The position numbers were made by a program, and so were the translations under genes. The notes beneath the pieces are model-generated. The model was not told the origin of the DNA. It saw nothing but the letters and a program-made list of their open reading frames with translations, and did not search any database. Shown piece by piece: positions 12,786 to 63,097 of a stretch of 64,000 nucleotides of DNA. Position 1 is the first letter of the stretch. Every line of letters begins with the position of its first letter. This DNA comes from Desulfomonilia bacterium (GTDB taxonomy: Bacteria > Desulfobacterota > Desulfomonilia > UBA1062), in NCBI GenBank assembly GCA_050014195.1, contig JBEKDT010000001.1, forward strand, positions 224,001 to 288,000. Direction: 5' to 3'.

Positions 12786-12840
12786 AAACAAACTCTGAAG
12801 AGATCCACTCTCGTAGGCTTTATCCGCCTTCAGGTAAGCG

Positions 12841-13848: not shown

Positions 13849-13883
13849 GTCTTGAAATTATTTGTAAGGGGTAGGCCTACATA

Positions 13884-14505: not shown

Positions 14506-14506
14506 T

Positions 14507-15214
14507 ATGGAACACGGGTACCTCGTTCTGAATTTCATCACCCATCCCCTTTATGAACTCATCCATGAAAAGTTCGGCCTGACTGACGGCAACCACATGC
14601 ACCAGGTCACCTTTACCTGGCTCTACATGCTCTTTCTCATCGTGATTTCTCTAATTGTGTCCAGGAATCTGAAGATGGTTCCGGGAAGGCTTCAAAATTT
14701 TTTAGAGGTGGTCATCGGCGGACTGAAGTCACTTGTGGTGGACACCATGAGCGAGCACGGCATGAGGTTCTTCCCACTCATAGCCACTATCGCGGTATAC
14801 ATCTTCACATGCAACATGGGAGGCGTTATTCCCGGCTTCTATTCACCCACGGCAAACCTCAATACCAACCTGTCCATGGCACTCACCGTGTTTCTATTGA
14901 CACACATCGTGGGCGTGAAGATCCATGGCTTCAAATATCTCAAACATTTCCTGGGTCCGGTGTGGTGGATGGCGCCCATCATGTTGCCGGTGGAGCTCAT
15001 CGGCCACCTGGCGCGGCCGCTTTCTCTCACCATGCGGCTCTTTGGGAATATATTCGGTGAAGACCTGGTGCTCGTGGTTCTCTTGGCACTGGTCCCGTTC
15101 CTCCTTCCCATGCCCATGCTTGTACTCATGATATTCACCTCGATCCTGCAGGCATTCGTGTTCACGCTGCTTGCCATGATGTATATAAGCGGCGCTATGG
15201 AGGAGTCCCACTAA
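14507..15214 (+). CDS. atpB: F0 ATP synthase subunit a
   Basis: PTANLN, RPLSLTMRLFGNI, LQAFVFTLL..Y. Confidence 0.95.
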   Translation: MEHGYLVLNFITHPLYELIHEKFGLTDGNHMHQVTFTWLYMLFLIVISLIVSRNLKMVPGRLQNFLEVVIGGLKSLVVDTMSEHGMRFFPLIATIAVYIFTCNMGGVIPGFYSPTANLNTNLSMALTVFLLTHIVGVKIHGFKYLKHFLGPVWWMAPIMLPVELIGHLARPLSLTMRLFGNIFGEDLVLVVLLALVPFLLPMPMLVLMIFTSILQAFVFTLLAMMYISGAMEESH

Positions 15215-45066: not shown

Positions 45067-45141
45067 GGCGGCATAGCCAAGTGGTAAGGCGACGGTCTGC
45101 AAAACCGTTATTCACCGGTTCAAATCCGGTTGCCGCCTCCA
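45067..45141 (+). tRNA. tRNA-Cys (GCA)
   Basis: Acceptor GGCGGCA/TGCCGCC, D-loop AGCCAAGTGGTAAGGC, anticodon loop CTGCAAA, T-loop GGTTCAAATCC, encoded CCA. Confidence 0.97.
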
Positions 45142-46880: not shown

Positions 46881-48098
46881 TTATAATCCCCTACCTGTCT
46901 TACAAGGCTTAATTTTGTTCATAACTTCATGCAAAGCATCAATTGATTCGTGTATATCTATACCTGAAGTGAATCGTCCAATACTAAACCGTATCGAGGC
47001 CCTCGCATCAGTATCAGAAAGTCCTATTGCGCGTAACACATGTGAGGGTTCTGGAATACCTGACGTACAGGCAGCACCGGTTGAGGCGGCTACAAAAGGC
47101 TGAAGTGCCCCAATAAGTTCATGCGCATCTAAGCTTCTGAAACATATATTTGCGTTGCCCGGATGCCTGAGGTCACCGCTTGCGCCGTTAATATGGATGT
47201 TTGTGGTAATGAGGTTAAGTTGTTCAATGAATTGGTCACGCAATGCACGGATCTTTATGCGTTCCATAACCGCGTCTGCTGATGTGACGAGTTCTATCGC
47301 CGCACCAAATCCAACACAAAGAGGAACAGGAAGAGTTCCGGCTCGGAGACCATTCTGTTGACCTCCACCATAGATAAGAGGTTTGACCAATCGCTGAACA
47401 TCGCGTCTAATAAATAGAGCACCAATGCCTTTCGGCCCATAAAGTTTGTGAGCAGATAGGCTAAGAAAATCGACATCGAGCTCATTAACATCTAGCGGCA
47501 TTGCCGTGAGGGCTTGTACAGCATCTGTATGTATTAGTGCTCCAACATTTCGGCAAAGTGATGTTACATCTTTCACGGGCTGAATAGTTCCGATCTCGTT
47601 ATTTACAGTCATTACTGAGACAAGTAATACATCAGTGGCTAAACGTTCTTCTAATATATCAAGTCGAATGATGCCATTATGATCAACAGGCAATTGTTCA
47701 ATAACAAGATCAAACTGTTCACTAGCTGCATAAGCAGCTGCAAAGACAGATTTGTGCTCTATTGAGCTGACAAGGATTCGACGACGGTCTGCACTTGCAT
47801 ATCCCGCAGCACCTATGATTGCTAAATTATTCCCCTCTGTGGCCCCTGATGTAAAAATGATCTCATCAGGATCTGCAACGATAGCAGATGCAATTTTTTG
47901 GGTTGCTTCATCTATTGCAGCATTTGCCTCCCAACCAAAGGCATGGTCAGAAGAATGTGGGTTACCGGGATGATCAAAAAAGAAAGGCTTCATGGCTTCA
48001 ATCACCCGTTGATCAACGGGCGTCGAAGCCTGATAGTCCATGTATATTCGATTCTTTATCAATTTACACATCTTATCAAATTTAGGGCACTCGCTCAT
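46881..48098 (-). CDS. Cysteine desulfurase (IscS/DndA/SspA-like)
   Basis: YMDYQASTP, GNPHS, TSGATE, NNEIG, HTDAVQ, SAHKLYGPKG, catalytic STGAACTSG; start uncertain (48062-48098). Confidence 0.92.
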   Translation of the reverse strand: MSECPKFDKMCKLIKNRIYMDYQASTPVDQRVIEAMKPFFFDHPGNPHSSDHAFGWEANAAIDEATQKIASAIVADPDEIIFTSGATEGNNLAIIGAAGYASADRRRILVSSIEHKSVFAAAYAASEQFDLVIEQLPVDHNGIIRLDILEERLATDVLLVSVMTVNNEIGTIQPVKDVTSLCRNVGALIHTDAVQALTAMPLDVNELDVDFLSLSAHKLYGPKGIGALFIRRDVQRLVKPLIYGGGQQNGLRAGTLPVPLCVGFGAAIELVTSADAVMERIKIRALRDQFIEQLNLITTNIHINGASGDLRHPGNANICFRSLDAHELIGALQPFVAASTGAACTSGIPEPSHVLRAIGLSDTDARASIRFSIGRFTSGIDIHESIDALHEVMNKIKPCKTGRGL

Positions 48099-48135
48099 TT
48101 CACTTATTAAGAACTGGAGATAGCCTCCAGGTTCC

Positions 48136-48167
48136 TTGACAATACTCAAGGCATTATGTATTGTCAA
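48136..48167. promoter_or_regulatory. Symmetric bidirectional sigma70 promoter between the desulfurase and DUF4007 genes
   Basis: TTGACAATAC-N12-GTATTGTCAA reads TTGACA-17 nt-TATTGT on both strands. Confidence 0.75.
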
Positions 48168-48195
48168 CCTGGATGAAACCTCCAGGAAAGAACTT

Positions 48196-49167
48196 ATGGT
48201 AAGAGGCCCTCTTTATCAAGCCGAGAGCAAGCCCCTTTTTTCAGGACATGAAACCTTTCCTCTCCGGTATGGTTGGTTAAAAAAAGTATATGATACTATT
48301 TCAAAAAATTCTAACGACCCTGACAACAAACATATTTTCCTAAAAGACGACGCAATAGCCCGTTTTGGTGTTGGAAAAAACATGGTAGCATCAATGCGAC
48401 ATTGGGCGATGTGTTGTGGAGTGATTACTGAAGACGAACCGACGGGGCATCTTATCCCAACAGCATTTGGTGATTTTCTCTTCGGCCCAAGAGGAAATGA
48501 TCCATATTTAGAGAATCTTGCTTCTATCTGGCATCTTCATTGGTACCTTTGCTCCTGCGATAATAGCCGGCCGCTTAAAACAACATGGTTTTGGGTCTTC
48601 AATCATTTTAATGAAGTTAATTTCAAAAGGGATGATCTTGTCGAAGGACTAATGAAACTTGCCAAGGCTCGCAATTGGCAACGTGTTTCAAGGACAACAG
48701 TTCAACGAGATGTTGAATGTCTTGTTAGAATGTATGAGACACGAACGTCAAACAACATTGGGACAGTTGAGGACAACTTAGAATCTCCTATGGCAGAGCT
48801 TGGTCTCATTCGTGGTATTAAAGGTTATTTTCACCTTGTCCGTGGTCCCAAACCAACACTTCCTAATGGCATTTTTACTATGGCCCTGGACTCCTTTTGG
48901 AACCATATTGGTACTTCACACTCCATCTCTTTCGAAATGATCGCTCATGAGCCTGGATCACCCGGACGAATATTCCTTCTTGATGAATCAGACATAATAG
49001 ACCGTTTACTTGTTCTTGAAAATTTAACGCAGGGTACTCTTAGATGGTCGGAGACAGCAGGATTGAAGCAAGTTCTTCGAGATCATCCTCTTGGTGAAAA
49101 AGACCGACAAACACTATTGGTTAATGATTATCGGGAATCGCACCATCGGAAGGAGGCGTTCCGATGA
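48196..49167 (+). CDS. DUF4007 protein, SspB-like (putative nickase)
   Basis: FSGHETFPLRYGWLKK, FGVGKNMV.SMRHW, DPYLE, WHLHW, ELGL, PGRIF, ETAGL. Confidence 0.85.
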   Translation: MVRGPLYQAESKPLFSGHETFPLRYGWLKKVYDTISKNSNDPDNKHIFLKDDAIARFGVGKNMVASMRHWAMCCGVITEDEPTGHLIPTAFGDFLFGPRGNDPYLENLASIWHLHWYLCSCDNSRPLKTTWFWVFNHFNEVNFKRDDLVEGLMKLAKARNWQRVSRTTVQRDVECLVRMYETRTSNNIGTVEDNLESPMAELGLIRGIKGYFHLVRGPKPTLPNGIFTMALDSFWNHIGTSHSISFEMIAHEPGSPGRIFLLDESDIIDRLLVLENLTQGTLRWSETAGLKQVLRDHPLGEKDRQTLLVNDYRESHHRKEAFR

Positions 49168-52100
49168 GCCTTTCTGATCTTGTTCACGTTGCTAGCCGGT
49201 TTCAACGCTCAATCCGCATAGATACGGATCTTCATGATTCGAAGATACTTGAAGGATTTGTTTGTCCAAGATCATCAGCATATGTGCTCCTTACAATGGC
49301 CCAGCACATTGTGGATACAGGCCACACGGCATTCACATGGACCGGTCCATACGGTAGTGGCAAATCAAGCCTAGTTGTTGCTTTAAGCGCACTTCTTAAT
49401 GGTAATTCCACACTACAAAACCAAGCTGTGGCTATTGTTGGAAAAAACATTACAGACACTCTATGGAAAGCCTTACCTCTTAAAAAGAAAGGGTGGCGTA
49501 TACTTCCTGTTGTTGGTCAACGTTCCGTTCCAGCAGAAGTTATTGGTAAAGCACTTATTACAAATGGCTTTATTAAAAAGAAGGATGTAGGAACCTGGAC
49601 AGATGATCTCGTGATTTCTCTTCTGATCAAGCTAGCCAAAGAGCGTTCCAATATATATGGCGGATTAATTGTCTTCCTCGATGAAATGGGGAAGTTTCTT
49701 GAGGGGGCTGCTCAAGATGGTGTTGATATCTACTTTTTTCAACAACTTGCTGAAATAGCCGTTCGAAGTAAAGGCCGCCTTCTTGTTATTGGTGTTCTGC
49801 ATCAAGCTTTTGAGGAATATGCACAGCGATTAACTCGTGATCAACGTGATGAATGGGCAAAAGTCCAAGGTCGTTTTATTGATCTTATTGTTAATACTGC
49901 AGGTGAAGAACAATTAGATCTGCTTGCCCGAGCTATTCAGAGCGATTATTCAGCCAAGCATCTAACATCTTTATGCCAAACGGTTGCGAATGTAGTAAGA
50001 GCTGGCAGGCCAAGTGCTGCTATTGATATGGCAATCACTTTAGAGCGTTGTTGGCCCCTTCATCCAGTAGTAGCGTGCCTACTCGGACCTATCTCTCGCC
50101 GACGATTTGGGCAAAATCAACGCAGCTTGTTTGGTTTTCTGAACTCGGCTGAACCTTTCGGGTTCCAAGACTTCCTTCACAATGCCAACGAGAAAGATAT
50201 CTTTGGTCCGGATCACTTATGGGACTACCTCCGAGTTAATTTGGAGCCTGCAATCATGTCTTCCCCAGATAGCCACAGGTGGTCTATAGCAGTGGAGGCA
50301 ATCGAACGTTGTGAGACTATGGGAGCATCTATGGTCCACATCCAACTTCTGAAGACTATAGCTCTTTTAGATCTTTTCCGTGAGCGATCAGGGTTAAGTG
50401 CAACCTATGACTTGTTAACAGATTCTGTACTAGGAAAGGTCTCTAATACAGAAGTGATTGATATTCTCAAGCAACTTCAATCCTGGTCATTAATTATTTA
50501 TCGTAAACATCTTGGTGCATTTGCTATTCATGCTGGAAGCGATTTTGATCTCGATCACGCTTTAAAGGAAATGCTTGTCTCTTTTCAAGATGTGGATTTC
50601 CGAGAACTACGTGCATTAGCAGGATTACAGCCTATCTTAGCAAAACGACATTACCACGAAACGGGAGCTCTTCGATGGTTTGACGTTGACCTTGCACCCC
50701 TCACTGATGTGACGACACATATATCTATAGAATCCTCCTCCAACGGAGCTATTGGCCGCTTTCTGCTTGTTATACCAACTGCAAATGAATCAAAATCTAT
50801 GGCTTCTCAAATCTGTCAGGCTGTTGTCCATACATCGAGTGAGAATGTTGTAATTGGGTTATCTACTGCTTCCTGGCGAGTGATAGATTTAGCTCGAGAG
50901 TTTATTGCTATCACAAAAATTAGCGAAGAACGCCCTGAACTGAGCGGAGATCCAGTAGCACGACGTGAAGTATTCGCCCATATAGCCGATGTCAGATCAC
51001 GATTAGAAGCAGAACTCCAAAAGATGTTTGATACTGCAAATTGGTATCGCTCTGGTGTTGATCCAGTTCGATATAGCTATTCTGAGCTTAACACTTTGGC
51101 CTCAAACATAGCAGATACTATGTATAGTCAAGCTCCAAAGCTTCCCAATGAACTACTAAATCGAAAAAAACCCTCATCGAATGCTGTTGCTGCTCAGAAA
51201 GCATTACTGAAATTGATGGTACAGCATGAGGGCGAACCACGTCTCTCAATTCGAGGATTTCCTGCAGAGGGTGGTCTCTTAGAGTCCTTACTCTTAAAAA
51301 CAGATCTTTACCGGTTCCTTCCAAAACGAGGCTGGCAGTTTTTAACCCCGTCAAAAAGACACGATCCATGCGGGCTACTTCCTGCTTGGAAAGCTGTAAC
51401 CGAAATCTTGAAAAATAATTCCCACCGCACTGTCTCCTTGGCTGAAATTTTTACAATATGGCAACAACCACCTTATGGAATTAAGAATGGCCTCTTACCT
51501 ATTCTCGCTGTAGCATTTCTTCTTGCCCAACGAGATAAATTGGCCTTTTATCGTGATGGCATATTCCAAGCTCGTTTTACTGATCTAGATGTTGATTACT
51601 TAACTAATGATCCATCATCGATCCAGTTTCGATGGATGGATTTATCATTCCTTTCAAGAAAATTTCTTTCGGGTCTTGCTAAGATAGTATGCGAACTTGA
51701 TAATCAGAATAGCCTTGTTCATTTGGAACCAATCGATGTGGCACGTGGGCTCGTAGGTATTTTTGAGAATCTCAGACCATGGGTGAAGAGGACTAGTCGC
51801 CTCTCTGCAAGTGCTCTCCAAGTCCGTTCAATCTTTAAATCAGCTTCGGATCCGAACAAGTTCCTGTTCGATGATATACCGGGAATATTTGGAGAGATTG
51901 ATGCGAAAGAACCAGAACTTAATATAGAGCAAGTTATTAATTGTGTTCGAGAAGGTCTCTTTGAACTGATTCAGGCTTATTCTCATATGCTAGATAGGCT
52001 TCAACAAATGATGCTCATGGAACTTCAAGTCCCTAATACATCTCCCCAAGCATATGGTGAGCTGCGTGATCGCGCAGAAAACATTATTCAACTAACAGGG

Positions 52101-52559
52101 GATTTTCGACTAAATGCTTTTATAGGCCGATTGAGTCAGTTTAATGGTTCCGAAATGGACATTGAGGGAATTGCAAGTCTTGCAGCTAACAAACCCCCTC
52201 GAGACTGGGTCGATGCTGACCTTGATCAAGCGGGGATAGAAATTGCAGACTTAGCGCAAAGATTTATTCGAGCAGAAGCGTACGCCCGAGTGAAAGGGCG
52301 CCCAGATAAACGGCAAGCCATGGCAGTCGTTATCGGAATGGATGGGCGCCCAACGCCAGTAACAGGTGAGTTTACAATTACTGATACAGAGAGAGTTGCA
52401 GTTGATGATATAGTTGCAAAGGTCGAGCAAGCTCTTTCGAGCACAGATCAGCATGGAAGAAATATTATTCTTGCCGCACTTGCTGAGATGAGTGCCCGGT
52501 ATTTGAATGATGATATTGAGGGTCAAATATCAAAGATGGTAGCCAAGAAAGTAGGCTGA
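49164..52559 (+). CDS. Large P-loop ATPase, SspC-like
   Basis: RFQRSIRI, Walker A GPYGSGKS, Walker B FLDEMGKFLE, LHQAF, WAKVQGRF, WPLHP, FGQNQRSLFGFL, PPYGIK. Confidence 0.82.
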   Translation: MSLSDLVHVASRFQRSIRIDTDLHDSKILEGFVCPRSSAYVLLTMAQHIVDTGHTAFTWTGPYGSGKSSLVVALSALLNGNSTLQNQAVAIVGKNITDTLWKALPLKKKGWRILPVVGQRSVPAEVIGKALITNGFIKKKDVGTWTDDLVISLLIKLAKERSNIYGGLIVFLDEMGKFLEGAAQDGVDIYFFQQLAEIAVRSKGRLLVIGVLHQAFEEYAQRLTRDQRDEWAKVQGRFIDLIVNTAGEEQLDLLARAIQSDYSAKHLTSLCQTVANVVRAGRPSAAIDMAITLERCWPLHPVVACLLGPISRRRFGQNQRSLFGFLNSAEPFGFQDFLHNANEKDIFGPDHLWDYLRVNLEPAIMSSPDSHRWSIAVEAIERCETMGASMVHIQLLKTIALLDLFRERSGLSATYDLLTDSVLGKVSNTEVIDILKQLQSWSLIIYRKHLGAFAIHAGSDFDLDHALKEMLVSFQDVDFRELRALAGLQPILAKRHYHETGALRWFDVDLAPLTDVTTHISIESSSNGAIGRFLLVIPTANESKSMASQICQAVVHTSSENVVIGLSTASWRVIDLAREFIAITKISEERPELSGDPVARREVFAHIADVRSRLEAELQKMFDTANWYRSGVDPVRYSYSELNTLASNIADTMYSQAPKLPNELLNRKKPSSNAVAAQKALLKLMVQHEGEPRLSIRGFPAEGGLLESLLLKTDLYRFLPKRGWQFLTPSKRHDPCGLLPAWKAVTEILKNNSHRTVSLAEIFTIWQQPPYGIKNGLLPILAVAFLLAQRDKLAFYRDGIFQARFTDLDVDYLTNDPSSIQFRWMDLSFLSRKFLSGLAKIVCELDNQNSLVHLEPIDVARGLVGIFENLRPWVKRTSRLSASALQVRSIFKSASDPNKFLFDDIPGIFGEIDAKEPELNIEQVINCVREGLFELIQAYSHMLDRLQQMMLMELQVPNTSPQAYGELRDRAENIIQLTGDFRLNAFIGRLSQFNGSEMDIEGIASLAANKPPRDWVDADLDQAGIEIADLAQRFIRAEAYARVKGRPDKRQAMAVVIGMDGRPTPVTGEFTITDTERVAVDDIVAKVEQALSSTDQHGRNIILAALAEMSARYLNDDIEGQISKMVAKKVG

Positions 52560-52561
52560 AA

Positions 52562-53398
52562 ATGAGTGAAGGGGAAAGGCATGTGCTTGGCCTATCAGGG
52601 GGGCGTGATAGCGCCGCATTGGCTGTGTACATGCGACAACACCATCCTGAACTTGACATCGACTTCTTTTTTACTGACACAGGGAAGGAACTACCTGAAG
52701 TTTATGAATTTCTCGGACGCTTGGAAGGTTTTCTGGGAAAACCAATTTTACGATTAAATCCCGACCGAGATTTTGATTTCTGGTTAAAACAGTATAACAA
52801 CTTCCTTCCCTCAGCTCAGACGAGGTGGTGTACCCGTCAGTTGAAGCTTCGCCCTTTTGAAGATTGGTTGCGTCCTCAATTGGATGCAGGGATGAAGATA
52901 TTTAGTTATGTGGCAATTCGAGCAGATGAAAACTACCGAGATGGCTATACTTCAAAAAAAGAAAGATTGACTGTATGCCTACCCTTCAAATCCGCCGGGA
53001 TTGACAAAATCGGTGTTTTAGATATTTTGGATAATGCTGGCCTAGGTCTCCCGAAATACTACGCATGGAGAACTCGCTCCGGGTGCACCTTCTGCTTTTT
53101 TCAACAGAAGATTGAGTGGGTTCGTTTATTAGAACATCACCCCGACAAATTCGATGAGGCAAAGCAATATGAGAAAACAGCAGTGGAACACTGTTCACCA
53201 TTTACATGGAGCCAAGGAGAATCGCTAGAGGCCTTATCAAAACCAGAACGTATCGAAGCCATTAAGAATGATCACGAAATGCGTTTGTCACGTTTAAAGT
53301 GTAATACCAGGCCAAATCCTTTACGGTCAGAAAATGAACCGCTTGATATTGATGACCTTTACGGGCAAGCTAAAGTATGTTTAGCCTGCCATAAGTAA
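52562..53398 (+). CDS. PAPS-reductase-fold protein, SspD-like
   Basis: PP-loop SGGRDS, DTGKELPE, RWCTRQLK, IRADE, RSGCTFCFFQ, C-terminal CLACH. Confidence 0.87.
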   Translation: MSEGERHVLGLSGGRDSAALAVYMRQHHPELDIDFFFTDTGKELPEVYEFLGRLEGFLGKPILRLNPDRDFDFWLKQYNNFLPSAQTRWCTRQLKLRPFEDWLRPQLDAGMKIFSYVAIRADENYRDGYTSKKERLTVCLPFKSAGIDKIGVLDILDNAGLGLPKYYAWRTRSGCTFCFFQQKIEWVRLLEHHPDKFDEAKQYEKTAVEHCSPFTWSQGESLEALSKPERIEAIKNDHEMRLSRLKCNTRPNPLRSENEPLDIDDLYGQAKVCLACHK

Positions 53399-53418: not shown

Positions 53419-55056
53419 ATGTCCGGAGCCCCAGGAATCTCGATTCAAAATGTCCTTAGAAGTGCTCCGGAGAAAGCACTTCGAGACTTTGTAGGTGATT
53501 CGACGATCAATGTTTTATCAGCACTTAATCCAGACTTGGTCACAAAAGATAATTTAGTGGAGCTTGCAAATCAATCAGCATCCCCATTTGAAATTATACA
53601 GCGAAAGGCATTGCGTGATCGTCTTATTGGACTTCTTCCAATCAATAAGGCGCAAGAGCTCGCAAAAAAGATGGGTATACCTGCAGAGAGTAAGTTCCTC
53701 TATGACCGTCTTATTATTGAAGCAAACGAAAGGCGAGCAGAGTCTATTCTTCTAAGTTTCTTTGGTGTTGTCATTCCCGATCGGGCACGAGGGGCTGAAG
53801 AGGCAGCCCAAAAGGAAATATTTCCGACATATAGCTTGTTTCCTCACCAAAGAAGTGTTGTAGAGCGCGCTCTTGTTGCGTTACATGAAGATCCATACAA
53901 GACGGTGGTACATATGCCTACAGGGTCGGGTAAGACACGCACTGCGATGCATATAGTGGCTGATGTACTTAATAAGAACCCCAATCGTTTGGTGATATGG
54001 CTGTCACAGAGTGCAGAATTATTGGAGCAAGCTGCAGATGAATTTGAGAAAGCATGGGGAGCTCTTGGCTCGTTTTCCACATCAGTTTACCGTTTCTGGG
54101 GGGATCATGATCCAAACATAGAAGAAGCTCGTAAGGGGTTTCTTGTTGCTGGTCTAGGTAAGCTTCATGCTTTATCAAAGCGTGATGCTAACATGATAAT
54201 GAGGCTTGGTGATCGTGCACCGTTAACGGTTTTTGATGAGGCGCACCAGGCAATTGCCCCAACATTCAAGTCTCTTATTAATTATCTTAAAGATAAGAAG
54301 CCAGGAAACGCTCTATTAGGTTTAACCGCAACACCTGGTAGAACATGGGCAAATATAGCAGCCGATGCTGTTTTGTCTGATTTTTTCGGTAACCATAAGG
54401 TGGTCTTAGAAATTGAAGGTTACACTAATCCCGTCCACTATTTAATTGAAGAAGGGTATCTTGCTCGACCAACATTCAGAACCTTGAATGTTGACCCAGG
54501 CTTTAATATTTCAGAAAAAGATTTAAATGATATGTCCGAGGAATATGACATCCCCACCTCAGTGCTCGATAAACTTGCCATGAATGATCAGCGGAACATC
54601 CGAATTATCACAACAGTTGAGGATTTATGCCAGAGGCATAATAGAATAATAGTTTTTGCTGCAACAGTTGGACATGCTCACTTGATCTCATCCATACTGA
54701 CTTTACGTGGAACTCACTCATTTGTAATAACCGGTTATACAGATCGTACAACCCGTGAGAGTATCATTGCTAAGTTCAAAAGCAATACCTCTGAACCGTT
54801 GGTTCTTTGTAATTTTGGCGTACTTACAACAGGTTTTGATGCTCCAAAGACAAGTGCTTTAATTATTGCCCGCCCTACCAGGTCTCTGGTATTATATAGT
54901 CAAATGGTTGGCCGTGCCATTCGTGGCGAACGTGCGGGGGGCAACAAATCCGCAGAAATCGTTACAGTCGTAGACCCACAGTTGCCCGGATTTGGTGATA
55001 TTGCAGATGCATTCACAAATTGGGAGGATGTTTGGGGCGATGACAAATGCATGTGA
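53419..55056 (+). CDS. SF2 DEAH helicase (Res-subunit-like)
   Basis: MPTGSGKT, DEAH, TATP, LTTGFDAP, QMVGRAIR. Confidence 0.9.
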   Translation: MSGAPGISIQNVLRSAPEKALRDFVGDSTINVLSALNPDLVTKDNLVELANQSASPFEIIQRKALRDRLIGLLPINKAQELAKKMGIPAESKFLYDRLIIEANERRAESILLSFFGVVIPDRARGAEEAAQKEIFPTYSLFPHQRSVVERALVALHEDPYKTVVHMPTGSGKTRTAMHIVADVLNKNPNRLVIWLSQSAELLEQAADEFEKAWGALGSFSTSVYRFWGDHDPNIEEARKGFLVAGLGKLHALSKRDANMIMRLGDRAPLTVFDEAHQAIAPTFKSLINYLKDKKPGNALLGLTATPGRTWANIAADAVLSDFFGNHKVVLEIEGYTNPVHYLIEEGYLARPTFRTLNVDPGFNISEKDLNDMSEEYDIPTSVLDKLAMNDQRNIRIITTVEDLCQRHNRIIVFAATVGHAHLISSILTLRGTHSFVITGYTDRTTRESIIAKFKSNTSEPLVLCNFGVLTTGFDAPKTSALIIARPTRSLVLYSQMVGRAIRGERAGGNKSAEIVTVVDPQLPGFGDIADAFTNWEDVWGDDKCM

Positions 55057-56863
55057 TGATGTTCAAAATGGAAGTGTAATTATCCCTACCAATCTTGCTA
55101 TCCGCGCAATGCGTGATAGTGGTTATCGTAATACTGCTCATGCTTTAGCAGAGTTAATAGATAACTCTGTACAAGCGACAGCAACAACAGTCGAAGTCTT
55201 CTGTATAGAGGAGATGGTCAGTGTAAACGGAAAACAGCGACGTCGGGTCACCAAGATCGCTGTTCTAGATAATGGTACGGGCATGCCACCAGAAGTACTA
55301 CGAATGGCTCTTCAATTTGGTAATGGCACTCACCTAAATGATCGATCTGGAATTGGACGTTTCGGGATAGGACTCCCGAATGCCTCCATCTCTCAAGGAA
55401 AACGAGTTGACATCTGGACATGGCAAAGCGGTCCAGACAATGCAATTTATAGCTATCTGGATGTTGATGAGATTGAAAAAGGGCAGATTCAGTTTGTTCC
55501 CGAACCGGAACATGATCCTATACCATCTGAATGGCGTAATCGAGGTAGAAGCTTTGGAACGACAGGATCTCTCGTCGTTTGGAGTAATTTCGATGATCAA
55601 CGACTAACATGGAAGAGTGCTCGGGCAACTCTTGAGAACACTGAGTGGATCGTTGGTAGGATATATCGCAAGTATATACATAAAGGTGATCTACGGATTC
55701 AGTTACGTGCTTTTGATGGAATGAATATTCTTTTCGAAAGGGATACATGCGTAAATGATCCACTATATCAAATGGCCCCATCCTCAACGCCGGCACCATT
55801 CAATAACAAACCGATGTTCGAGCAATGGGGTGAAGATGATCAAGTCTTCGATATAAATTTCAAAGGAACGAATCACAAAGTCATAGTCCGAGCTTCTTGG
55901 GCAAATCGAGAAACACTACCCGAGGACGGAACAGATCGTGGTTCTAAAGACTATGGTAAGCATGCAGGGAAGAATATTGGTGTCTCAATTGTAAGGGCTG
56001 ATCGAGAACTTGTTTTGGATCCTTCCTGGGCTATTGGATATGACCCCGTTGAGCGGTGGTGGGGTATTGAAGTTAACTTTCCTCCTGAACTTGATGAGAT
56101 CTTTGGCGTCACAAACAACAAGCAGGCAGCAACAATTTTTTCCCACATGGTCAACTTCGATTGGAAAACCGAAGCGGATCCGGGAGAGGAGTACCTTGAC
56201 TTCAAACGCCGGATCTCTGAAGAAGGTGATCATCGTGCAGATCTACTAGATATCGTTAATTACATCCGGACAATTCTCTCACGCATCCGAAGTGCATTAA
56301 GTGACCAAACTAAGGGAAGACGATCAGGGGCGAAGCGTCATGATGATACTTCTGTAGAAGACCGCGCCTCGACAAAGTTCAAGGAAAGAGCACGTTCTGG
56401 CCATGAAGCAGAATCCGACAGTGGTGTTTTTGACAAAGATGCTCAAAACGCCCTTCTGGAAGATTTGGTAACAGAAAAGAACTATGAAGAAGACACAGCA
56501 AAACAGATGGTTGAAGCAACCCTACGTCGAGGTCGAAATGTAATTTTCATAGAGTCCGCAAGCGAGATGGACGCCTTTTTTTCTGTGGAGCAAAAACCCG
56601 GCGGCATCACCCAAGTTATCTTTAATAGCTCACACCCAGCTTATGATTATCTCATCAAAACACTTGAATCAGATACTACAGAGGCAACAGATAAAGAATT
56701 AATAGGTCGTATTCAAAATGCTTCTGATACAATCTGGATGCTCTTCGCGGCATGGGCGCGACAAGAGATCGAGGACATGCCTGGGCGTGAAAAGCTACGT
56801 CGGATGCGACATGACTGGGGGCGGATGGCTCGGGATTTCCTCTCCGATGATACAGAGGACTAA
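55040..56863 (+). CDS. MORC-like GHKL ATPase
   Basis: AMRDSGY, ALAELIDNS, DNGTGM, GRFGIGL Bergerat motifs, S5-like region with GVTNNKQ. Confidence 0.85.
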   Translation: MTNACDDVQNGSVIIPTNLAIRAMRDSGYRNTAHALAELIDNSVQATATTVEVFCIEEMVSVNGKQRRRVTKIAVLDNGTGMPPEVLRMALQFGNGTHLNDRSGIGRFGIGLPNASISQGKRVDIWTWQSGPDNAIYSYLDVDEIEKGQIQFVPEPEHDPIPSEWRNRGRSFGTTGSLVVWSNFDDQRLTWKSARATLENTEWIVGRIYRKYIHKGDLRIQLRAFDGMNILFERDTCVNDPLYQMAPSSTPAPFNNKPMFEQWGEDDQVFDINFKGTNHKVIVRASWANRETLPEDGTDRGSKDYGKHAGKNIGVSIVRADRELVLDPSWAIGYDPVERWWGIEVNFPPELDEIFGVTNNKQAATIFSHMVNFDWKTEADPGEEYLDFKRRISEEGDHRADLLDIVNYIRTILSRIRSALSDQTKGRRSGAKRHDDTSVEDRASTKFKERARSGHEAESDSGVFDKDAQNALLEDLVTEKNYEEDTAKQMVEATLRRGRNVIFIESASEMDAFFSVEQKPGGITQVIFNSSHPAYDYLIKTLESDTTEATDKELIGRIQNASDTIWMLFAAWARQEIEDMPGREKLRRMRHDWGRMARDFLSDDTED

Positions 56864-56868
56864 TATCT

Positions 56869-57792
56869 GTGCTCGGTGAAAAGCTTCTTATAGCTGCTCG
56901 TGATGCGCAGCACGATATTACACTCATTGCCCCTTTTATAAAGGTTGATGCGTTGACGAAGGTTCTTGATAATGTTAATGCATCCATACCTCTCCGAATT
57001 ATTACAAGATGGATTCCAGCCGAAATCGCCGCAGGCATCTGTGACCTGGAAATTTTCGATATACTACAAGGAAGATCAAATTCTGAATTATTTGTTCATC
57101 CTTTTCTACACGCGAAGCTCTTCCGTTTTGATGATGTGGCCTTCTTTGGTTCAGCTAACCTAACTCGTAAAGCTCTTGGTTGGGCTGCACCTGCAAATGT
57201 CGAATTACTGCATGCCCCAAAAGATATGCTCAACGAGCTCAAAACCTTTGAAGTTGAGCTCATGGCATCTGTAATCCGAGTAGATGAGGTATATCGTGAC
57301 TTTATGTGCAAGCTAGTGGAGAAAGCAAAATCACAACCAATTGCAATAGCAGAGTTATTTGATGCAGAAACACACCAAGTGGAGTATTCTTGGCTGCCGA
57401 AATGTCGTACACCTGAATGGTTGTGGTTAGTGTACACTAACCCAGAAAAAGCAAGAACTCACATGGTTGAGTCGGCTTTTGAGGCTGCACAAATGGATTT
57501 GGTTACGCTTTACATCACACCAGGACTCCCCGAAACGTTATTCAATCAGCATGTGGCTGCTATTTTTGGAAGGATGCCATTGGTACAAGAGATCGATATC
57601 AGCGCCCGCGAAGGTGTAACAACAGATAAAGCAGTAGAGCTAATTGAAAGTGCAGCTAGTGGAGCTGAGTTACCCTATTCACCTTCTGATACTTGGGAAG
57701 TTTTAATGATGTGGCTTATGCATTTCTTCCCGCAACGTTATCGTAGAGAGCCAGAGACAGAGGTGTTTAGGCAAGGGCGTGTAATTGGTTGA
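56869..57792 (+). CDS. Phospholipase D-fold (single HKD) putative nuclease
   Basis: IAPF, HAKLFRFDD..FGSANLT, NVE motifs. Confidence 0.82.
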   Translation: MLGEKLLIAARDAQHDITLIAPFIKVDALTKVLDNVNASIPLRIITRWIPAEIAAGICDLEIFDILQGRSNSELFVHPFLHAKLFRFDDVAFFGSANLTRKALGWAAPANVELLHAPKDMLNELKTFEVELMASVIRVDEVYRDFMCKLVEKAKSQPIAIAELFDAETHQVEYSWLPKCRTPEWLWLVYTNPEKARTHMVESAFEAAQMDLVTLYITPGLPETLFNQHVAAIFGRMPLVQEIDISAREGVTTDKAVELIESAASGAELPYSPSDTWEVLMMWLMHFFPQRYRREPETEVFRQGRVIG

Positions 57793-58013: not shown

Positions 58014-59292
58014 GGGTACCTCTAAAAATTCATTAGGATCAGAGTAGATATAAAGTGCTATAATACATTGAATATGTTATATAAATAGTGGTTTTTGATA
58101 GATTTTGAGGGGGTTAAGATGAAGCAGCTTGGGTTGTTTGATATTGAGAATAGATATGACCGGATAGATAAATGCGGAGACCCGCTTATGAAGTTGAACG
58201 AGGTGATAGACTGGGAAGAGTTTCGCCCGGGGCTCATGAAGGTGAGGGAGAAAGAACGGAAGAGCAATGCTGGAGCGAAGCCGTACGATGTAGTGCTGAT
58301 GTTCAAGAGCTTGATCATCCAGTCTCTGTACAATCTTTCTGATGAAGAGCTGGAGTATCAGATGTTGGATCGGTGGACATTCATGAGGTTTTTGGGAGTT
58401 GGACCTGGGGATCGGATACCTGATGCGAAGACGATCTGGCTTTTCCGGGAGCAGTTGAAGGAGGCTGGGCTTGTAGAGGAGCTGTTTAAGATGTTTGATA
58501 GGCATCTTCAGGTGAGTGGATATGTAGCCCGGAAGGGGCAGATTGTGGATGCCAGCATAGTGTCGGTACCGAAGCAGAGGAACACCAGGGAGGAGAATGC
58601 ATTGATCAAGGAGGGCTCTGAGCCAGAGGACTGGAATGAAGCGAAGCGTCGGCAGAAGGACACAGACGCAAGGTGGTTGAAGAAGAACGGCAAGAACTAT
58701 TATGGGTATAAGAACCATGTCAATGTGGATGTGAAGCACAAGCTGATACGGGGCTATGCGGTTACGGATGCAAGCGTGCATGACTCTCAGGTTTTTGGAG
58801 ATCTTCTCCATGAAGGGAACCGGAGTAAGGATGTGTATGGTGATAGTGCCTATCGATCTGAGGAAATCCTGGAGATGCTGAAGGGGCAAGGATATCGTGA
58901 GCATCTACAGCGCAAGGGATACCGTCATCGTAAGTTAACAGACTGGGAGAAACAAGGGAATCACACCAGGTCAAAGATACGATCCCGCATAGAGCATGTA
59001 TTTGGAGTGCAAGCCATGATGGCTGGAGATCTGATATTACGGACAATAGGGATTGCACGTGCACGGGTAAAAATAGGGTTGAGGAACTTGGCCTACAACA
59101 TGTTTCGTTTCCATACGCTTGCTGCTGTCAGGTGAAGTGCGTCCAAATGGTTGGAATCATGTTACAGAGGGATCAGAAATCGCAGATTACCCCCATAAAG
59201 AATCGCTTCAGTGGCTATGATTCACAGGTAATGCATGGACAAATCAATTCCATTATAATGATTTTCAGAAAAGTGAATTATTAGAGGTGGCC
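58014..59292 (+). mobile_element. IS5-family insertion sequence, 1279 bp, apparently intact
   Basis: Terminal IRs GGGTACCTCTAAAAATTCA / GGCCACCTCTAATAATTCA (16/19), TATA on both flanks (58010-58013, 59293-59296). Confidence 0.88.
58119..59135 (+). CDS. IS5-family DDE transposase
   Basis: YNLSD..E, PDAKTIWLFRE, IVDASI, YGYKNH, YGDSAY, RSRIEHVFG. Confidence 0.93.
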   Translation: MKQLGLFDIENRYDRIDKCGDPLMKLNEVIDWEEFRPGLMKVREKERKSNAGAKPYDVVLMFKSLIIQSLYNLSDEELEYQMLDRWTFMRFLGVGPGDRIPDAKTIWLFREQLKEAGLVEELFKMFDRHLQVSGYVARKGQIVDASIVSVPKQRNTREENALIKEGSEPEDWNEAKRRQKDTDARWLKKNGKNYYGYKNHVNVDVKHKLIRGYAVTDASVHDSQVFGDLLHEGNRSKDVYGDSAYRSEEILEMLKGQGYREHLQRKGYRHRKLTDWEKQGNHTRSKIRSRIEHVFGVQAMMAGDLILRTIGIARARVKIGLRNLAYNMFRFHTLAAVR

Positions 59293-59415: not shown

Positions 59416-62400
59416 TCAAATCCTTTGGCATCCGGGTCCGATCAGGCTGCTACGCCCCCCTGTTTCGGGGATTACCTGTATCTGAGTGCTGATCCGCTCC
59501 TTCAGAGCCGTGACATGTGATATGACGCCGATCAGCTTTCCGTCCTGGCGTAGGCCGGCAAGGGTCTCTAGGGCCATTTCAAGTGCATCTTCATCAAGTG
59601 TCCCGAATCCTTCGTCGAGGAAGAGCGAATCCACACGAACCTTGTGGCTTGCCATCTGGGAAAGGCCCAATGCCAGAGCAAGGCTTACAATGAAACTTTC
59701 ACCGCCTGAGAGGTTCTTAGTCGAACGGATTTCTCCTGCCTGATAGTTGTCGATAACATTCAACTCGAGCGGTTGTGACACGTCACGTATGAGAACATAG
59801 CGATCCGTCATCTTCCTGAGCTGACGATTGGCATGCATGGTCATCATCTCAAACGTCAGGCCTTGGGCAAAATTTCTGAATTTCTTACCGTCGGCCGAGC
59901 CGATAAGTTCATGTAAGGCATCCCAACGGGTACATTCAGTTTTCTGGGCGTCAATGTTTTTGATTTTTTCCTGCTGCTTTACCCGTAGTTTTTCATTCTC
60001 GCTCAAGCTATTTATGATGCCGCCGATTTCTAGCCTTGTTTGTTTCAAGCTCGATTCGCATGAATTGATGCTTTCCTTAAGCGTCTCCAGGGGCTGATCT
60101 GTCAAATGTTTCTCTCGCTCCGCCGCCAGGGCTGCCGACTTGTCCTTCCGCCGGGCGTCAAGTTCCGTCTTCTCCCTGATCATGGCCTTCTCTTGTTCAG
60201 CGAGCCGTTCCCTCTCTTCTTCATTCATACAGGCAGACAGATAGTCGATCTCGTCTTCGAACCCAGTCCTCTTGATCCGCGCCATCAGATTTTGTTCCGC
60301 CTGTAGCAATTCGGTTGCTCGAAGGCCTGTTTTTTTTATCAGAGAATCTATCTTCTCCTTAAGGGCACTGATTTCTTTTTCTATCTGCACATGTTCTTCA
60401 CGTGCTTTTTCAAAGGCTTTATTGGCTTGATCCACTACATCCGCCAGGAGTTTTTCCTCTTGGTCGGCGTTCTTCTCCCCAAACAGATCACGGCGGGAAG
60501 CGCCCAAGGACTCATACTGTGCAATCAGATTATCGCGGTCCTTGCGCCTGTCCTCCGTATCATTTTCTAGTTTTCCCAGCAAGGCCTTGTCCTTATCAAT
60601 TCCAGCTTTTACGTCATTGATCTTTTTCTCAAGACCGTTTTTCTCTTCCTGCTTCGTCTGCCATGCATCTTTGCGCTCCGCAAGGTCTTTTAGGATGGAT
60701 TCAAGATCGGTTGAGGGGATCTCCCTGATCCCAAAAGGCTCGACATCCTTAAGCATAGTGATGCGAACTCTCTCCGTCTCTTCTTCTATGACTTCTATGT
60801 CTTTCTTCAGCCGCTCATGCTCACGACCGGCCGTATCGAGTCTATGCTTGGCGTCTTGTAGAGCCTTGACTGAGTTATCCAATTGCGTTCTTAATGCTTC
60901 CAGTACGTTTTGAGCTTGCTTATGCTTTTGGCCCATCTCTTCGGCTGCGGCTACAATTCCCGATATTTCAGCAATTCTTGCTTGAACATCTGCAATCTCA
61001 TCGTGTACTTTCCCGGCTCGATCTTCAGGGCTGGCCTTGATATTCAGTTTCAGCATGTTTTCGTCACATTGTTTTTCATCAGCATCCAGAGCTGACTTTT
61101 TCTCCTCCTGCTCTTTTTCAGCATGCCGTATATCCGCAATCGTCTTAGCTTGTCCGGTTTCCAGCTTGCTCAGCTTCTCAGAGACTCGTTTGAGTTCAGC
61201 CTTGGCTCTCTTTAAATCTTTTTCCGTTTTGTTCAATTCAGGGACATTACCCTTTGCATAGGGATGATCGATAGCACCGCACAGTGGGCATGGTTTACCG
61301 TCTTCAAGTCGCGCCCTCTCTTCTTCAAGGTCCCTGATACGACTGAGGAGAACGACTTGTGTCTCCAAATTTCCAATATTCCCTTCCAAAAGAATCTTTT
61401 TCTCGGCATGGGATTTTATCTCATCCGATACTTTCTCTTGATCAGTCGTTAATGTTTCAAGGCTTTTTTTCAGACTATCCAAGACCGAGCAAGTCTTGTC
61501 GATCCGATCAATGATTTCTCCTGTCTGTTTCAGAATACCCTCACGTTCTTTATGGGCATTATTTTCCTGATGCCACTGGCTGATCTCTCGTCCCTTGAGA
61601 GTGGCTGTGATCTTGTCGGTCAGAATCTTAAGGTCGTTTTGAGCCTTTTCAAATTCCTTGAGGGATTTTTCATGGTTGACCTCTATCGTCTTACACGCTG
61701 CAAGAGAAGACTTGTTTTCCTTGTCAGCGGCAGTAAGTGCTTTATGAGCTTTGATATTCCTTTCATCGAGGTCAAGTAGTGAAGTGAATACCTTGGAGAT
61801 TGCAGCAAGGTTTGTCTGAAGTGCGGCATCGGCAGCATTCTGTGTCAGGTAACCTAGGTTCGCTTTTAGCGCATCCTCCAATTTTTGCAGGTTCTGCAAG
61901 GCTTCATTGATTCTTATTTTATAATCCTCACTCTGCGTCGAAGCATCCGATATAGACTTCTCCTTGTCTTCAATATTCTTTTTCTGCTCGTTCATTCTGG
62001 CATCGAGGACGCGCACCTTTTTGATGACATCCGCTTCGGAACTCTGCTTTTTCCCTGCCTCATTCAGCCCTGTCTCTGCGGCCGTTTTTCTGTTCAACGC
62101 CTCTTCACAGGTTTTTCCCTTTACCGGCAGTGCGTTAAGTGCACCATCGAGTTCCTTTTTCTCGATGTCCTGCTGAGCACGCAAAGCAGCCACTACCCGG
62201 TAGTCTCCTTCGAGAGCGAGCGCCCTGCGCGATTTCTCAAGCTTCTTCCCATACGGCTCAAACGCCTGGAAGCGTTTCTCAAAATCCTCCTTCTGTTTAT
62301 CAAGTTCGCTGATTCCCTTTTCCAGGGTAGCAATGGTTTCAAGCCATGCGGTAGCCTTGCGAAGGCTTTCGAGCTGAACACCCAGTTCCATTTCAGAAGA

Positions 62401-63087
62401 CTGCTTTTCTTTAAGATTCGTTTGCAGAACCCTTTCCTCATCCGTGCTTAATAACTGGATGCCTTTCAATTCAGCCAGTAACAACTCAAGCTTGTCCCGC
62501 TCTTCTCCCCGGCGCTCATGGACCTTCATGGATATCAGGCTGTAGATTTCGGTTCCGGTAATCTGTTCAAGGATTGGTGCTCTCCCATCAGGAGGGGCCT
62601 GGAGAAACGCGGCGAATCCACCCTGTGCTAGCAGCATGGAACGGGTGAAGCGCTCAAAGTCCATGCCGGTTGCTTCTTCAATGAATCCGGCCACCTGGAG
62701 TATCCTTGATTCCAAGACCGTCCCGGATACGGCGTCTGCCACTTCATGCCTTGCCGGCTGCAGCTCCCCTTCAGGTTTTCTTCTGGCCCGATGCTGGCTC
62801 CAGTGGCAACGGTAGCGGCCTTTCTGCGTCTCAAAGGTGACCTCGGCAAAGCATTCTCCTGTCTGGCGCGACATGATCTCGTTGCTGCTTTTTGTAACCT
62901 TATCGAGGCGTGGTGTGCTGCCATAAAGCCCGAGGCATATGGCATCAAGGATGGTTGTCTTTCCTGAGCCCGTGGGGCCGGTGATGGCAAATATGCCGTC
63001 GGATGAATACTCCGGGTGGGTAAAATCGATATACCATCCCCCGGTGAGTGAATTCAGGTTCTTGAATCGAACACCGAGTATCCTCAT
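59416..63087 (-). CDS. sbcC: SbcC/Rad50-family SMC ATPase
   Basis: GPTGSGKT, LAQGGFAAFL, coiled coils, zinc hook CPLCG, LSGGE, DEGFGTLD, ISH. Confidence 0.93.
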   Translation of the reverse strand: MRILGVRFKNLNSLTGGWYIDFTHPEYSSDGIFAITGPTGSGKTTILDAICLGLYGSTPRLDKVTKSSNEIMSRQTGECFAEVTFETQKGRYRCHWSQHRARRKPEGELQPARHEVADAVSGTVLESRILQVAGFIEEATGMDFERFTRSMLLAQGGFAAFLQAPPDGRAPILEQITGTEIYSLISMKVHERRGEERDKLELLLAELKGIQLLSTDEERVLQTNLKEKQSSEMELGVQLESLRKATAWLETIATLEKGISELDKQKEDFEKRFQAFEPYGKKLEKSRRALALEGDYRVVAALRAQQDIEKKELDGALNALPVKGKTCEEALNRKTAAETGLNEAGKKQSSEADVIKKVRVLDARMNEQKKNIEDKEKSISDASTQSEDYKIRINEALQNLQKLEDALKANLGYLTQNAADAALQTNLAAISKVFTSLLDLDERNIKAHKALTAADKENKSSLAACKTIEVNHEKSLKEFEKAQNDLKILTDKITATLKGREISQWHQENNAHKEREGILKQTGEIIDRIDKTCSVLDSLKKSLETLTTDQEKVSDEIKSHAEKKILLEGNIGNLETQVVLLSRIRDLEEERARLEDGKPCPLCGAIDHPYAKGNVPELNKTEKDLKRAKAELKRVSEKLSKLETGQAKTIADIRHAEKEQEEKKSALDADEKQCDENMLKLNIKASPEDRAGKVHDEIADVQARIAEISGIVAAAEEMGQKHKQAQNVLEALRTQLDNSVKALQDAKHRLDTAGREHERLKKDIEVIEEETERVRITMLKDVEPFGIREIPSTDLESILKDLAERKDAWQTKQEEKNGLEKKINDVKAGIDKDKALLGKLENDTEDRRKDRDNLIAQYESLGASRRDLFGEKNADQEEKLLADVVDQANKAFEKAREEHVQIEKEISALKEKIDSLIKKTGLRATELLQAEQNLMARIKRTGFEDEIDYLSACMNEEERERLAEQEKAMIREKTELDARRKDKSAALAAEREKHLTDQPLETLKESINSCESSLKQTRLEIGGIINSLSENEKLRVKQQEKIKNIDAQKTECTRWDALHELIGSADGKKFRNFAQGLTFEMMTMHANRQLRKMTDRYVLIRDVSQPLELNVIDNYQAGEIRSTKNLSGGESFIVSLALALGLSQMASHKVRVDSLFLDEGFGTLDEDALEMALETLAGLRQDGKLIGVISHVTALKERISTQIQVIPETGGRSSLIGPGCQRI

Positions 63088-63097
63088 GCCTGTTCTC

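Follow-up and report, generated by a model that had tools for sequence, protein, structure and literature searches.

A helicase, a MORC-like ATPase and a phospholipase D family protein as the putative effector half of an Ssp phosphorothioate defence cassette

Results

The window analysed here, a whole stretch of 64,000 nucleotides from a Desulfomonilia bacterium (assembly GCA_050014195.1, contig JBEKDT010000001.1, positions 224,001 to 288,000 of the forward strand), carries three adjacent genes for a superfamily 2 (SF2) helicase, a MORC-like GHKL ATPase and a phospholipase D (PLD) family protein, located at 53419-57792 on the + strand and called the triad below, next to the sspABCD genes for phosphorothioate (PT) modification of DNA. 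With a probability of roughly 0.7, the triad represents the effector (restriction) half of a seven-gene PT-based defence cassette and a third kind of Ssp partner module, the cassette being composed of sspA followed by sspBCD-helicase-GHKL-PLD on a mobile island of about 14 kb, where the triad occupies the place that SspE or SspFGH takes elsewhere. A PT-coupled restriction module is well supported by the gene context.

The triad beside sspABCD

The modification module of the window encompasses a cysteine desulfurase, a DUF4007 protein, a BrxC-like ATPase and a PAPS-reductase-like protein in one locus, and PADLOC assigned all four to SspABCD, which bears out the ssp context that an earlier note, made from the sequence of the window, had claimed for the triad. 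The sspA gene (46881..48167, - strand; Pfam Aminotran_5 2.1e-80; PADLOC SspA 6.7e-132) is divergent from sspB (48136..49167, + strand, longest open reading frame (ORF), with the family match starting at residue 35; Pfam DUF4007 5.3e-85; PADLOC SspB 2.7e-103), which is followed on the same strand by sspC for the large BrxC-like ATPase (49164..52559; PADLOC SspC E=0, 1315 bits, full length) and by sspD (52562..53398; PADLOC SspD 1.4e-133; Pfam PAPS_reduct 3.9e-6). The helicase gene (53419..55056, +) begins 20 nt after sspD, with an AGGAGG located 8 nt before its ATG, and overlaps the GHKL gene (55028..56863, +), which is separated from the PLD gene (56869..57792, +) by a gap of 5 nt. A scan for promoters and terminators gave counts no higher than in shuffled sequences, and among RNA runs no holder was listed.

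Linkage of the triad with PT genes across genomes

An alignment of 22 GHKL sequences was searched against one genome per species, where 352 stretches were matched and 327 of them encode a relative; the best 80 of these 327 relatives by similarity to the query yielded 77 loci, each with flanks of at most 10 kb, in which gene presence was scored by tblastn with the window proteins. The helicase was matched in 76 of the 77 loci, the sole miss (L047) being a contig end, and the PLD protein in 72, four misses being contig ends and the fifth (L038) having insertion sequence (IS) elements instead. The whole triad was detected in 71/77 loci, 64 of those with at least one SspB, SspC or SspD match, and such matches were found within 65 of the 77 stretches overall (all three proteins in 55, two in 8, one in 2 and none in 12). 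The gap between the GHKL and PLD genes is mostly -4 to +20 nt. SspD is placed co-linear upstream in 41 loci and convergent downstream in 16, with two other arrangements represented by 2 loci each, and the gap from sspD to the helicase gene is below 250 nt in 20 of the 32 co-linear loci measured. The linkage between the triad and PT genes is conserved over large distances, the median identity to the window across the loci being 54% for the GHKL protein, 49% for the helicase, 36% for the PLD protein and 73% for SspD.

Half of the 12 loci without an Ssp match (L015, L028, L047, L055, L056 and L059) are short or cut contigs. Three Chloroflexi-type loci without an SspD match (L062, L066 and L067) have the triad beside a different PT module, made up of a PAPS reductase with a 4Fe-4S domain, a DUF4007 protein, a large ATPase and a cysteine desulfurase, and in L014 sspABCD lies 11 kb upstream on the same contig, with plasmid RepA and ParA genes in between. 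All three loci found in IMG/VR carry sspABCD together with the triad, and five of the six plasmid regions viewed pair the triad with genes for DUF4007, ATPase and PAPS reductase (or desulfurase), namely those of Roseobacter, Trichormus variabilis ATCC 29413, Hymenobacter, Mesorhizobium and Treponema saccharophilum, where the annotation is generic ('DEAD/DEAH box helicase', 'ATP-binding protein', 'phospholipase D family protein'). The PLD family comprises 734 representative clusters at E<=1e-30, and the triad is spread over many phyla, plasmids and islands.

Exchange of partners beside sspBCD

The second sample consisted of 401 genomes drawn evenly from the phylum of the window, with SspD called at E<=1e-30. 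SspD was detected in 13 of the 401 genomes, and the only 2 with the GHKL gene belong to these 13, which corresponds to 2/13 SspD-positive vs 0/388 SspD-negative genomes; in the second triad genome of the sample, the triad is convergent on sspD. Independent assortment of the triad genes, which the earlier note had named as the finding that would tell against its proposal, was seen neither in this sample nor among the 77 loci.

Differential partners were observed beside sspBCD in the 13 SspD-positive genomes: the triad in 2; SspE in 1 (2e-282 in PADLOC), which has the closest sampled SspD, 76% identical to that of the window; an SspFGH-like set in 5; a DndB-like protein with a NERD helicase in 1; an unnamed set with a 1,350-1,370-aa protein (plus a HerA-like ATPase where the contig extends) in 2; and an unclear partner in 2. 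In a FastTree phylogeny of 72 SspD sequences, 59 triad-linked rows form one clade (support 100), within which the SspE-linked and NERD-linked rows nest, and another three triad-linked rows group with the SspFGH-linked ones beyond this clade; the rows are kin chosen through the triad, and the tree shows exchange, not rates. On the basis of these partners and the SspD tree, the partner at the post-sspD position is exchangeable, with the triad as one alternative.

Further arrangements were observed at some of these loci. In L085 (10540-14999, genome G338), where SspD is 73% identical to that of the window, the genes after sspABCD encode a DndB-like protein of 681 aa, a protein of 218 aa and one with NERD and helicase parts in place of the triad. 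In L094 (2181-9880) and L100 (598-8281), from genomes G072 and G328, sspBCD is followed by a five-gene set of about 284, 170, 1,350-1,370, 370 and 390 aa, where the ~390-aa protein of L094 is HerA-like and the first four have no PADLOC match; this set may be another Ssp partner module. The own genome of the window yielded no convincing SspE, SspH or DndB, the SspH model being matched only by an FtsK-like end and DndB not at all. About 140 kb from the ssp locus, it holds a 714-aa GmrSD-like ORF (G000:C1:134322-135854) that scores weakly against the SspE model (46.8 bits) and is probably an unrelated type IV enzyme.

Domains and motifs of the three proteins

The helicase (545 aa, ATG start) was matched by Pfam ResIII (3.8e-23), DEAD (3.5e-13) and Helicase_C (2.2e-12), and no nuclease domain was found in it by Pfam. 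It comprises a RadD-like core (residues ~140-505) and a conserved N-terminal domain (residues 1-139). Motif I (Walker A, MPTGSGKT, 53914..53937, +) has G169, G171, K172 and T173 invariant, and motif II (DEAH, 54235..54246, +) has D273, E274, A275 and H276 invariant among 31 sequences; motifs FPHQR (Q), TATPGR (III) and QMVGRAIR (VI) were located as well, all located motifs being invariant or nearly so in the 31 homologues. The 31-sequence profile places the core closest to RadD (structure 6jde, 4.8e-39), with further matches to SauUSI (7clg, 7.9e-15) and to a type I HsdR. Identity with RadD itself was rejected, as the protein scores 132.9 bits against the NCBIfam equivalog cut-off of 720 and the alignment is limited to the helicase core. 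The N-terminal domain gave no named match by profile and only unnamed or same-family clusters in the ESM Atlas, with scores of at most 0.83. Genome G002 (L080, 2962-3837) has the triad on one contig and, on a second one, an sspCD pair with a further helicase behind it. The N-terminal region of that helicase is similar to residues 24-230 of its window counterpart (23% identity), a hint that this unnamed N-terminal domain may be common to a broader family of Ssp-linked helicases.

In the GHKL protein (Pfam HATPase_c_3 2.6e-22), the ATPase module is followed by a putative S5/transducer-like domain in the middle and by a helical region towards the C-terminus. Its ORF is open from 54992 (54992-56863, 623 aa at the longest), and the start is likely the ATG at 55028 or 55040, a 100%-identical database protein of 611 aa pointing to 55028. 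The N box ELIDNS (motif I, 55151..55168, +) has E42, I44, D45 and N46 (611-aa numbering) invariant in 22 sequences, RDSGY was located at 55112-55126 and DNGTGM at 55268-55285, and ELIDN, DNGxGM and GRFGxGLPN are invariant in the 22 homologues, representing three of the four GHKL ATP-binding motifs and placing the protein in the GHKL superfamily. The best matches of the 22-sequence profile among solved structures are MORC2 (1.5e-5), MORC4 and SMCHD1, and the top Foldseek matches of the predicted model are SMCHD1 (5.4e-11), Hsp90, MutL/PMS1, MORC2 and MORC4, with GyrB also present. The Foldseek alignments to the N-terminal modules of SMCHD1, MORC2/4 and MutL extend over 385-420 columns, on a model whose mean predicted local distance difference test score (pLDDT) is only 68.7 and which is unconfident in the last 56 residues and in residues 432-464. 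The MORC signature of the S5 domain is given as GhXhhpXXRhl (PMC2292703), and the GVSIVRADREL stretch in the S5-like domain (55979..56011, +) agrees with it at 10 of 11 positions. The strict signature occurs in 0/22 homologues and, when the h position after R is left free, in 22/22, all of which have E there. The ATPase is thus MORC-like by its sequence and could be a MORC proper or a paraMORC.

The PLD protein (307 aa, GTG start, model pLDDT 91.4) is composed of two domains. The Pfam PLDc_2 match is only 9.8e-5 (22.6 bits, below the cut-off of 27), and the chain holds a single HKD catalytic motif of the form HxK(x)4D...GSxN, HAKLFRFD...GSANLT at 57109..57165 (+). Across 40 homologues sharing 26-65% identity, H81, K83, G94, S95, N97, N110 and E112 do not vary, and conservation of D88 is 90% or more. 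Residues 1-149 align with the nuclease domain of SauUSI (Z 17.1, rmsd 1.9, 139 aligned), residues 1-154 with NucT (Z 14.7), Nuc (14.1), BfiI (13.8) and the NgoAVII R protein (4rct, 12.8), and Foldseek agrees on the PLD fold (NucT 1.1e-5). In single-HKD PLD nucleases such as Nuc and BfiI, the active site is made of two chains. Residues ~170-297 form a second, all-helical and conserved domain, with W175, P177, P182, Y189, D210 and W282 invariant in the 40 homologues, whose only structural matches, all of them weak, are 3bhw (Z 6.1), the recognition region of N.BspD6I (5.8), BrxA (5.7), FokI (4.6), SspB (4.3) and ArsR-type winged helix-turn-helix (wHTH) proteins (~4). Since all these matches are HTH or wHTH DNA binders, the helical domain is suggested to be a recognition domain, and the protein looks like a combined nuclease and recognition subunit in the model. 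Homology of the C-terminal domain with SspB was rejected (hhalign probability 0.07, E 0.72, no sequence support). Residues 150-307 gave only unnamed or same-family clusters in the ESM Atlas (scores <=0.83), and the fused forms of the PLD protein (539-2000 aa) yielded none that scored, which is weak evidence. A complex prediction of the GHKL and PLD proteins scored 0.00 vs a mark of 0.32 and is evidence neither for nor against their pairing.

The descriptions given by the earlier note therefore hold for the helicase with intact motifs and no fused nuclease and for the GHKL ATPase with its MORC-like N-terminus (RDSGY, ELIDNS); its account of the PLD protein was right about the single HxK/GSANLT motif and the nuclease type and missed the second conserved domain.

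Genomic island and neighbouring genes

The cassette lies in a low-GC island at ~45.1-59.3 kb of the window, with a GC content of 0.31-0.47 vs 0.53-0.56 on both flanks. The left edge is marked by a tRNA-Cys (GCA) gene (45067..45141, +; ARAGORN), just after which the GC content drops, and the right edge by an IS transposase (DUF772 + DDE_Tnp_1; 58095-59135, +) located 300 nt past the PLD stop codon; no att-like direct repeats stood out at the island ends. A 275-aa ORF on the strand opposite to the transposase (58077-58904), with no family match, is probably spurious. Left of the island are envelope genes (an msbA-like ABC exporter, lpxK and two lipid A acyltransferases), and on the right are sbcC and sbcD. 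Between the tRNA gene and sspA lies a gene for a 386-aa protein (45555-46715, -; PF15891 1.5e-9) in the lowest-GC part of the island (0.31-0.36), whose first 260 residues have no match and whose last ~125 residues are nucleoside 2-deoxyribosyltransferase-like; it has no PADLOC or NCBIfam match and is possibly a separate defence or effector gene. The sbcC gene (59416-63123, -) encodes 1235 aa that match the E. coli-type SbcC equivalog in three stretches and score 547.6 bits, against its cut-off of 750. The protein appears to be an SbcC of long and divergent form, the coiled coil being extended, and both GC skew and AT skew are of unusual strength across this gene.

Two recurrent gene pairs accompany the triad in other genomes, and the window contains neither. 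The first consists of a ~175-aa protein without a family (10/77 loci) and a ~420-aa DndB-like protein (PF14072 3e-28; 15/77 loci), located between sspD and the helicase gene or just after the PLD gene (L016 6465-8239, L019, L020, L027, L068, L050, L053 and others), the copy on the Roseobacter plasmid being annotated by NCBI as 'DGQHR domain-containing protein'; this pair may be a regulator or sensor of the triad system. The second, also in 15/77 loci, consists of a paraMORC-like histidine-kinase protein (~785-860 aa, with HATPase_c_3, HEF_HK and HATPase_c domains) and an unnamed ~660-aa protein, such as in L034 (3929-8271), L001 (12621-17224) and L041 (12801-17041). Other neighbours were observed in single loci: in L070, a 742-aa SspE-like protein with GmrSD_N (DUF262) directly follows the PLD gene (12783-15008), with AddAB-like nuclease and helicase genes upstream, which suggests that the triad and an SspE-type protein can share one locus; in L087 (6500-17600, genome G001), an 11-kb insert with RepA_C, ParA and a truncated DndB-like gene separates sspABCD from the triad; and in L033, a KwaB-like gene is present upstream of a broken triad.

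Discussion

Proposed mechanism and its alternatives

In the proposed mechanism, SspABCD would mark host DNA with backbone sulfur, and the triad proteins would form a complex with anti-phage activity, in which the PLD protein would bind DNA via its C-terminal helical domain and, like Nuc, BfiI and SauUSI, would have to come together as two copies before its one HKD active site is complete. The ATP-driven motor along DNA would be the RadD/HsdR-like helicase, and the MORC-like ATPase would dimerise on ATP and serve as a clamp or matchmaker coupling nuclease and motor, as MutL does for MutH and UvrD. The PT status set by SspABCD would decide cutting, with DNA being cut where its PT status differs from that of the host, similar to the scheme of the earlier note, in which the helicase would translocate, the MORC-like protein clamp and the PLD protein cut unmarked DNA. 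Exclusion by PT, the mode of classical restriction-modification (R-M), is favoured because it is unmodified DNA that SspFGH and DndFGH reportedly damage (PMC8092258) and because the sole Ssp-less genome carries a broken triad. The further suggestion of the note, that backbone sulfur directly blocks a covalent-histidine nuclease at the scissile phosphate, found no supporting evidence and is not favoured, because only the marked phosphates would be protected. Cao and colleagues reportedly found in 2014 that PT is present at no more than a minority of the consensus sites.

The candidates for the PT sensor are the N-terminal domain of the helicase, the PLD protein's C-terminal domain, the C-terminal region of the GHKL protein and a contact with SspB or SspC. 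A more speculative version, which we regard as doubtful yet conceivable, is that the MORC-like ATPase itself reads the mark, as a dimeric, ATP-gated clamp sensing backbone sulfur or SspBCD at marked sites and permitting or blocking PLD pairing while the helicase reels DNA. If so, it would be the first MORC-type machine of prokaryotes for which both mark and output are defined, and a bacterial model for the coupling of mark recognition to DNA compaction by eukaryotic MORC proteins and SMCHD1.

Several points weigh against the interpretation of the triad as the restriction half of a PT-based system. Its role is predicted from sequence, models and gene context, no known PT-reading domain was found by Pfam in any of the three proteins, and the wHTH assignment of the PLD C-terminal domain rests on Z values of 4-6 that may reflect a mere common helical arrangement. 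The 77 loci were picked by similarity to the query and most of their SspD proteins fall in one clade, so that the counts are non-independent and favour close kin. The linkage itself is incomplete: for L022, L038 and L070, SspD is encoded on a separate contig, in L077 the two SspD homologues are 1.9-2.6 Mb distant from the triad, the metagenome-assembled genome of L047 gave no SspD match at all, and the 9 kb around the helicase and GHKL genes of an Agrobacterium plasmid contain no ssp gene. The clearest counter-case is L033 (4700-14400, genome G003), counted as the sole triad genome without detectable SspD (best match 2e-4). There, a Mutator-family transposase lies between the GHKL and PLD genes, the PLD ORF is cut to 269 aa and IS110-family copies flank the triad, with copies just upstream; a broken triad in an Ssp-less genome fits a module that is harmful without modification.

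Among the alternatives, a complex that senses PT instead of being excluded by it, being stimulated or positioned by host PT and then nicking or cutting incoming DNA as SspE does, is considered unlikely. SspE, the characterised Ssp partner, is reported to act by PT sensing (PMC8092258), 10-15 of the 77 loci have a DndB-like protein with its small partner next to the triad, and a GmrSD_N/SspE-like gene directly follows the PLD gene in one locus, all of which would suit such a mode; however, the window cassette has neither a DndB-like nor a DUF262 gene, no DndB-like protein was found in its own genome, damage to non-PT DNA has been reported for the multi-protein partners SspFGH and DndFGH (PMC8092258), and the IS-disrupted triad of the Ssp-less genome again fits harm in the absence of modification. 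The recurrence of same-operon spacing between sspD and the helicase gene, the persistence of the linkage through four arrangements and two kinds of PT module, and the absence of the GHKL gene from all 388 SspD-negative sampled genomes argue against an autonomous ATP-dependent restriction or type IV-like system that merely shares defence islands with ssp and is blind to PT; this reading is very improbable, even though the helicase and PLD proteins resemble both catalytic parts of the modification-dependent SauUSI and a few triads (L077, the Agrobacterium plasmid) lie far from ssp.

We consider it equally improbable that the triad is a DNA-processing or repair accessory of the PT pathway, that is, a MutL/UvrD/MutH-like trio handling nicks or intermediates or tuning the modification. 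The combination of GHKL ATPase, helicase and nuclease does parallel mismatch repair (Iyer et al., PMC2292703), and RadD, a repair helicase, is what the helicase core comes closest to, but the score is far under the NCBIfam cut-off for that protein, most ssp loci of the phylum sample lack the triad and the others hold SspE, SspFGH-like or other sets in its place, and the triad resides on plasmids and on islands with IS elements and other defence genes. Restriction excluded by host PT remains the preferred reading of the triad.

Comparison with known systems

The triad shares with SspFGH a three-gene (for the triad, putative) restriction side adjoining sspBCD, a single-strand PT system and a patchy, swappable distribution, whereas the proteins are unrelated, SspF having a Walker A motif and SspH being FtsK/SpoIIIE-like (PMC8092258); the PADLOC models of SspFGH are absent from the triad at E<=1e-3 and yet reach 2.7e-222, 1.7e-136 and E=0 on a real example (L098). 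SspE takes the same post-sspD place, in a genome with a 76%-identical SspD, but is a single PT-sensing nickase of other folds, with DUF262 (GmrSD_N) and DUF1524 (GmrSD_C), and neither Pfam nor PADLOC gave a GmrSD or SspE match for the triad, while true SspE scores 2e-282. The PADLOC models of DndFGH do not match the triad either. DrmC of DISARM is likewise a PLD protein, and the partial PADLOC match to it (1.8e-6) covers the shared catalytic core only; no DrmA, DrmB or methylase was found at the locus.

In PbeABCD, PbeA is accompanied by PbeB, PbeC (a CxC ABC ATPase) and PbeD (DndE-like). PbeA is a fusion of HKD and SF2 helicase linked to Dnd PT genes (PMC10853773) and matches the window helicase at 6.5e-22 over the helicase core, but identity with this system was rejected, since the match spans only profile positions 240-439 of 672 and the nuclease is a separate gene here; PbeB, PbeC and PbeD were not found at the locus, apart from weak PbeC matches (E ~1e-4) on the flanking sbcC.

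The R2H2 systems NgoAVII and CglI also encode a PLD nuclease with recognition subunit apart from an SF2 helicase-like ATPase, whereas they carry a B3 recognition domain, have no GHKL subunit and are paired with methylation rather than PT, according to the parts of PMC7913695 consulted. The second domain of the window PLD protein is all-helical in the model, with wHTH-type matches and none to B3, and Pfam gave no Z1 domain, a part that the SF2 ATPase (H) subunit of the R2H2 enzymes has along with a C domain. SauUSI (7clg) is the best structural match of the PLD domain and has a sequence match to the helicase; its nuclease domains are described to dimerise into the active site while its SF2 ATPase translocates on DNA (PMC7913695). 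It differs in being one polypeptide with an SRA reader that cuts modified DNA and in having no GHKL partner.

Among GHKL proteins, VcSduA (paraMORC3-Shedu), a GHKL-nuclease protein, is reported to protect against phage with both activities being needed (PMC12137116), and GHKL+S5 ATPases are described to dimerise on ATP, with MutL coupling nuclease and helicase (PMC2292703). Iyer, Abhiman and Aravind predicted in 2008 that operons of MORC/paraMORC, SFII helicase and nuclease are R-M systems, with the ATPase in a looping or clamp role (PMC2292703). These prokaryotic operons resemble the triad in encoding a GHKL+S5 ATPase with an SFII helicase and a nuclease, and differ in being tied to methylases or to no modification gene, not to PT, as far as the consulted part of PMC2292703 describes them; in the same text, HKD comes up solely where it is fused to the N-terminus of Rad25-like helicases. 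Nitrococcus mobilis, named in Figure 2 of that paper, carries the present cassette (L012, GHKL protein 60% identical).

A full-text literature search, with some figures and supplementary tables that might bear on priority outside its reach, gave no link of PT or Ssp with a GHKL/MORC ATPase or with the triad, which is also not described in the consulted parts of PMC10853773, PMC12839542, PMC8011034, PMC12137116, PMC8713573 and PMC3506569. The prediction of MORC-containing R-M operons and the expectation of further Ssp partners were known before, and the new element is a putative MORC-containing restriction module tied to PT-based defence. Wang et al. (2021) reported that 2,211 of 2,678 sspBCD loci (83.9%) have no SspE or SspFGH nearby and asked about other restriction partners (PMC8092258), a question that the triad answers in part, with 2/13 SspD-positive genomes of the phylum sample and GHKL relatives in 327 stretches at one genome per species. 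With a MORC-type ATPase tied to a defined DNA mark, the MORC-restriction prediction of 2008 becomes directly testable with a compact seven-gene cassette.

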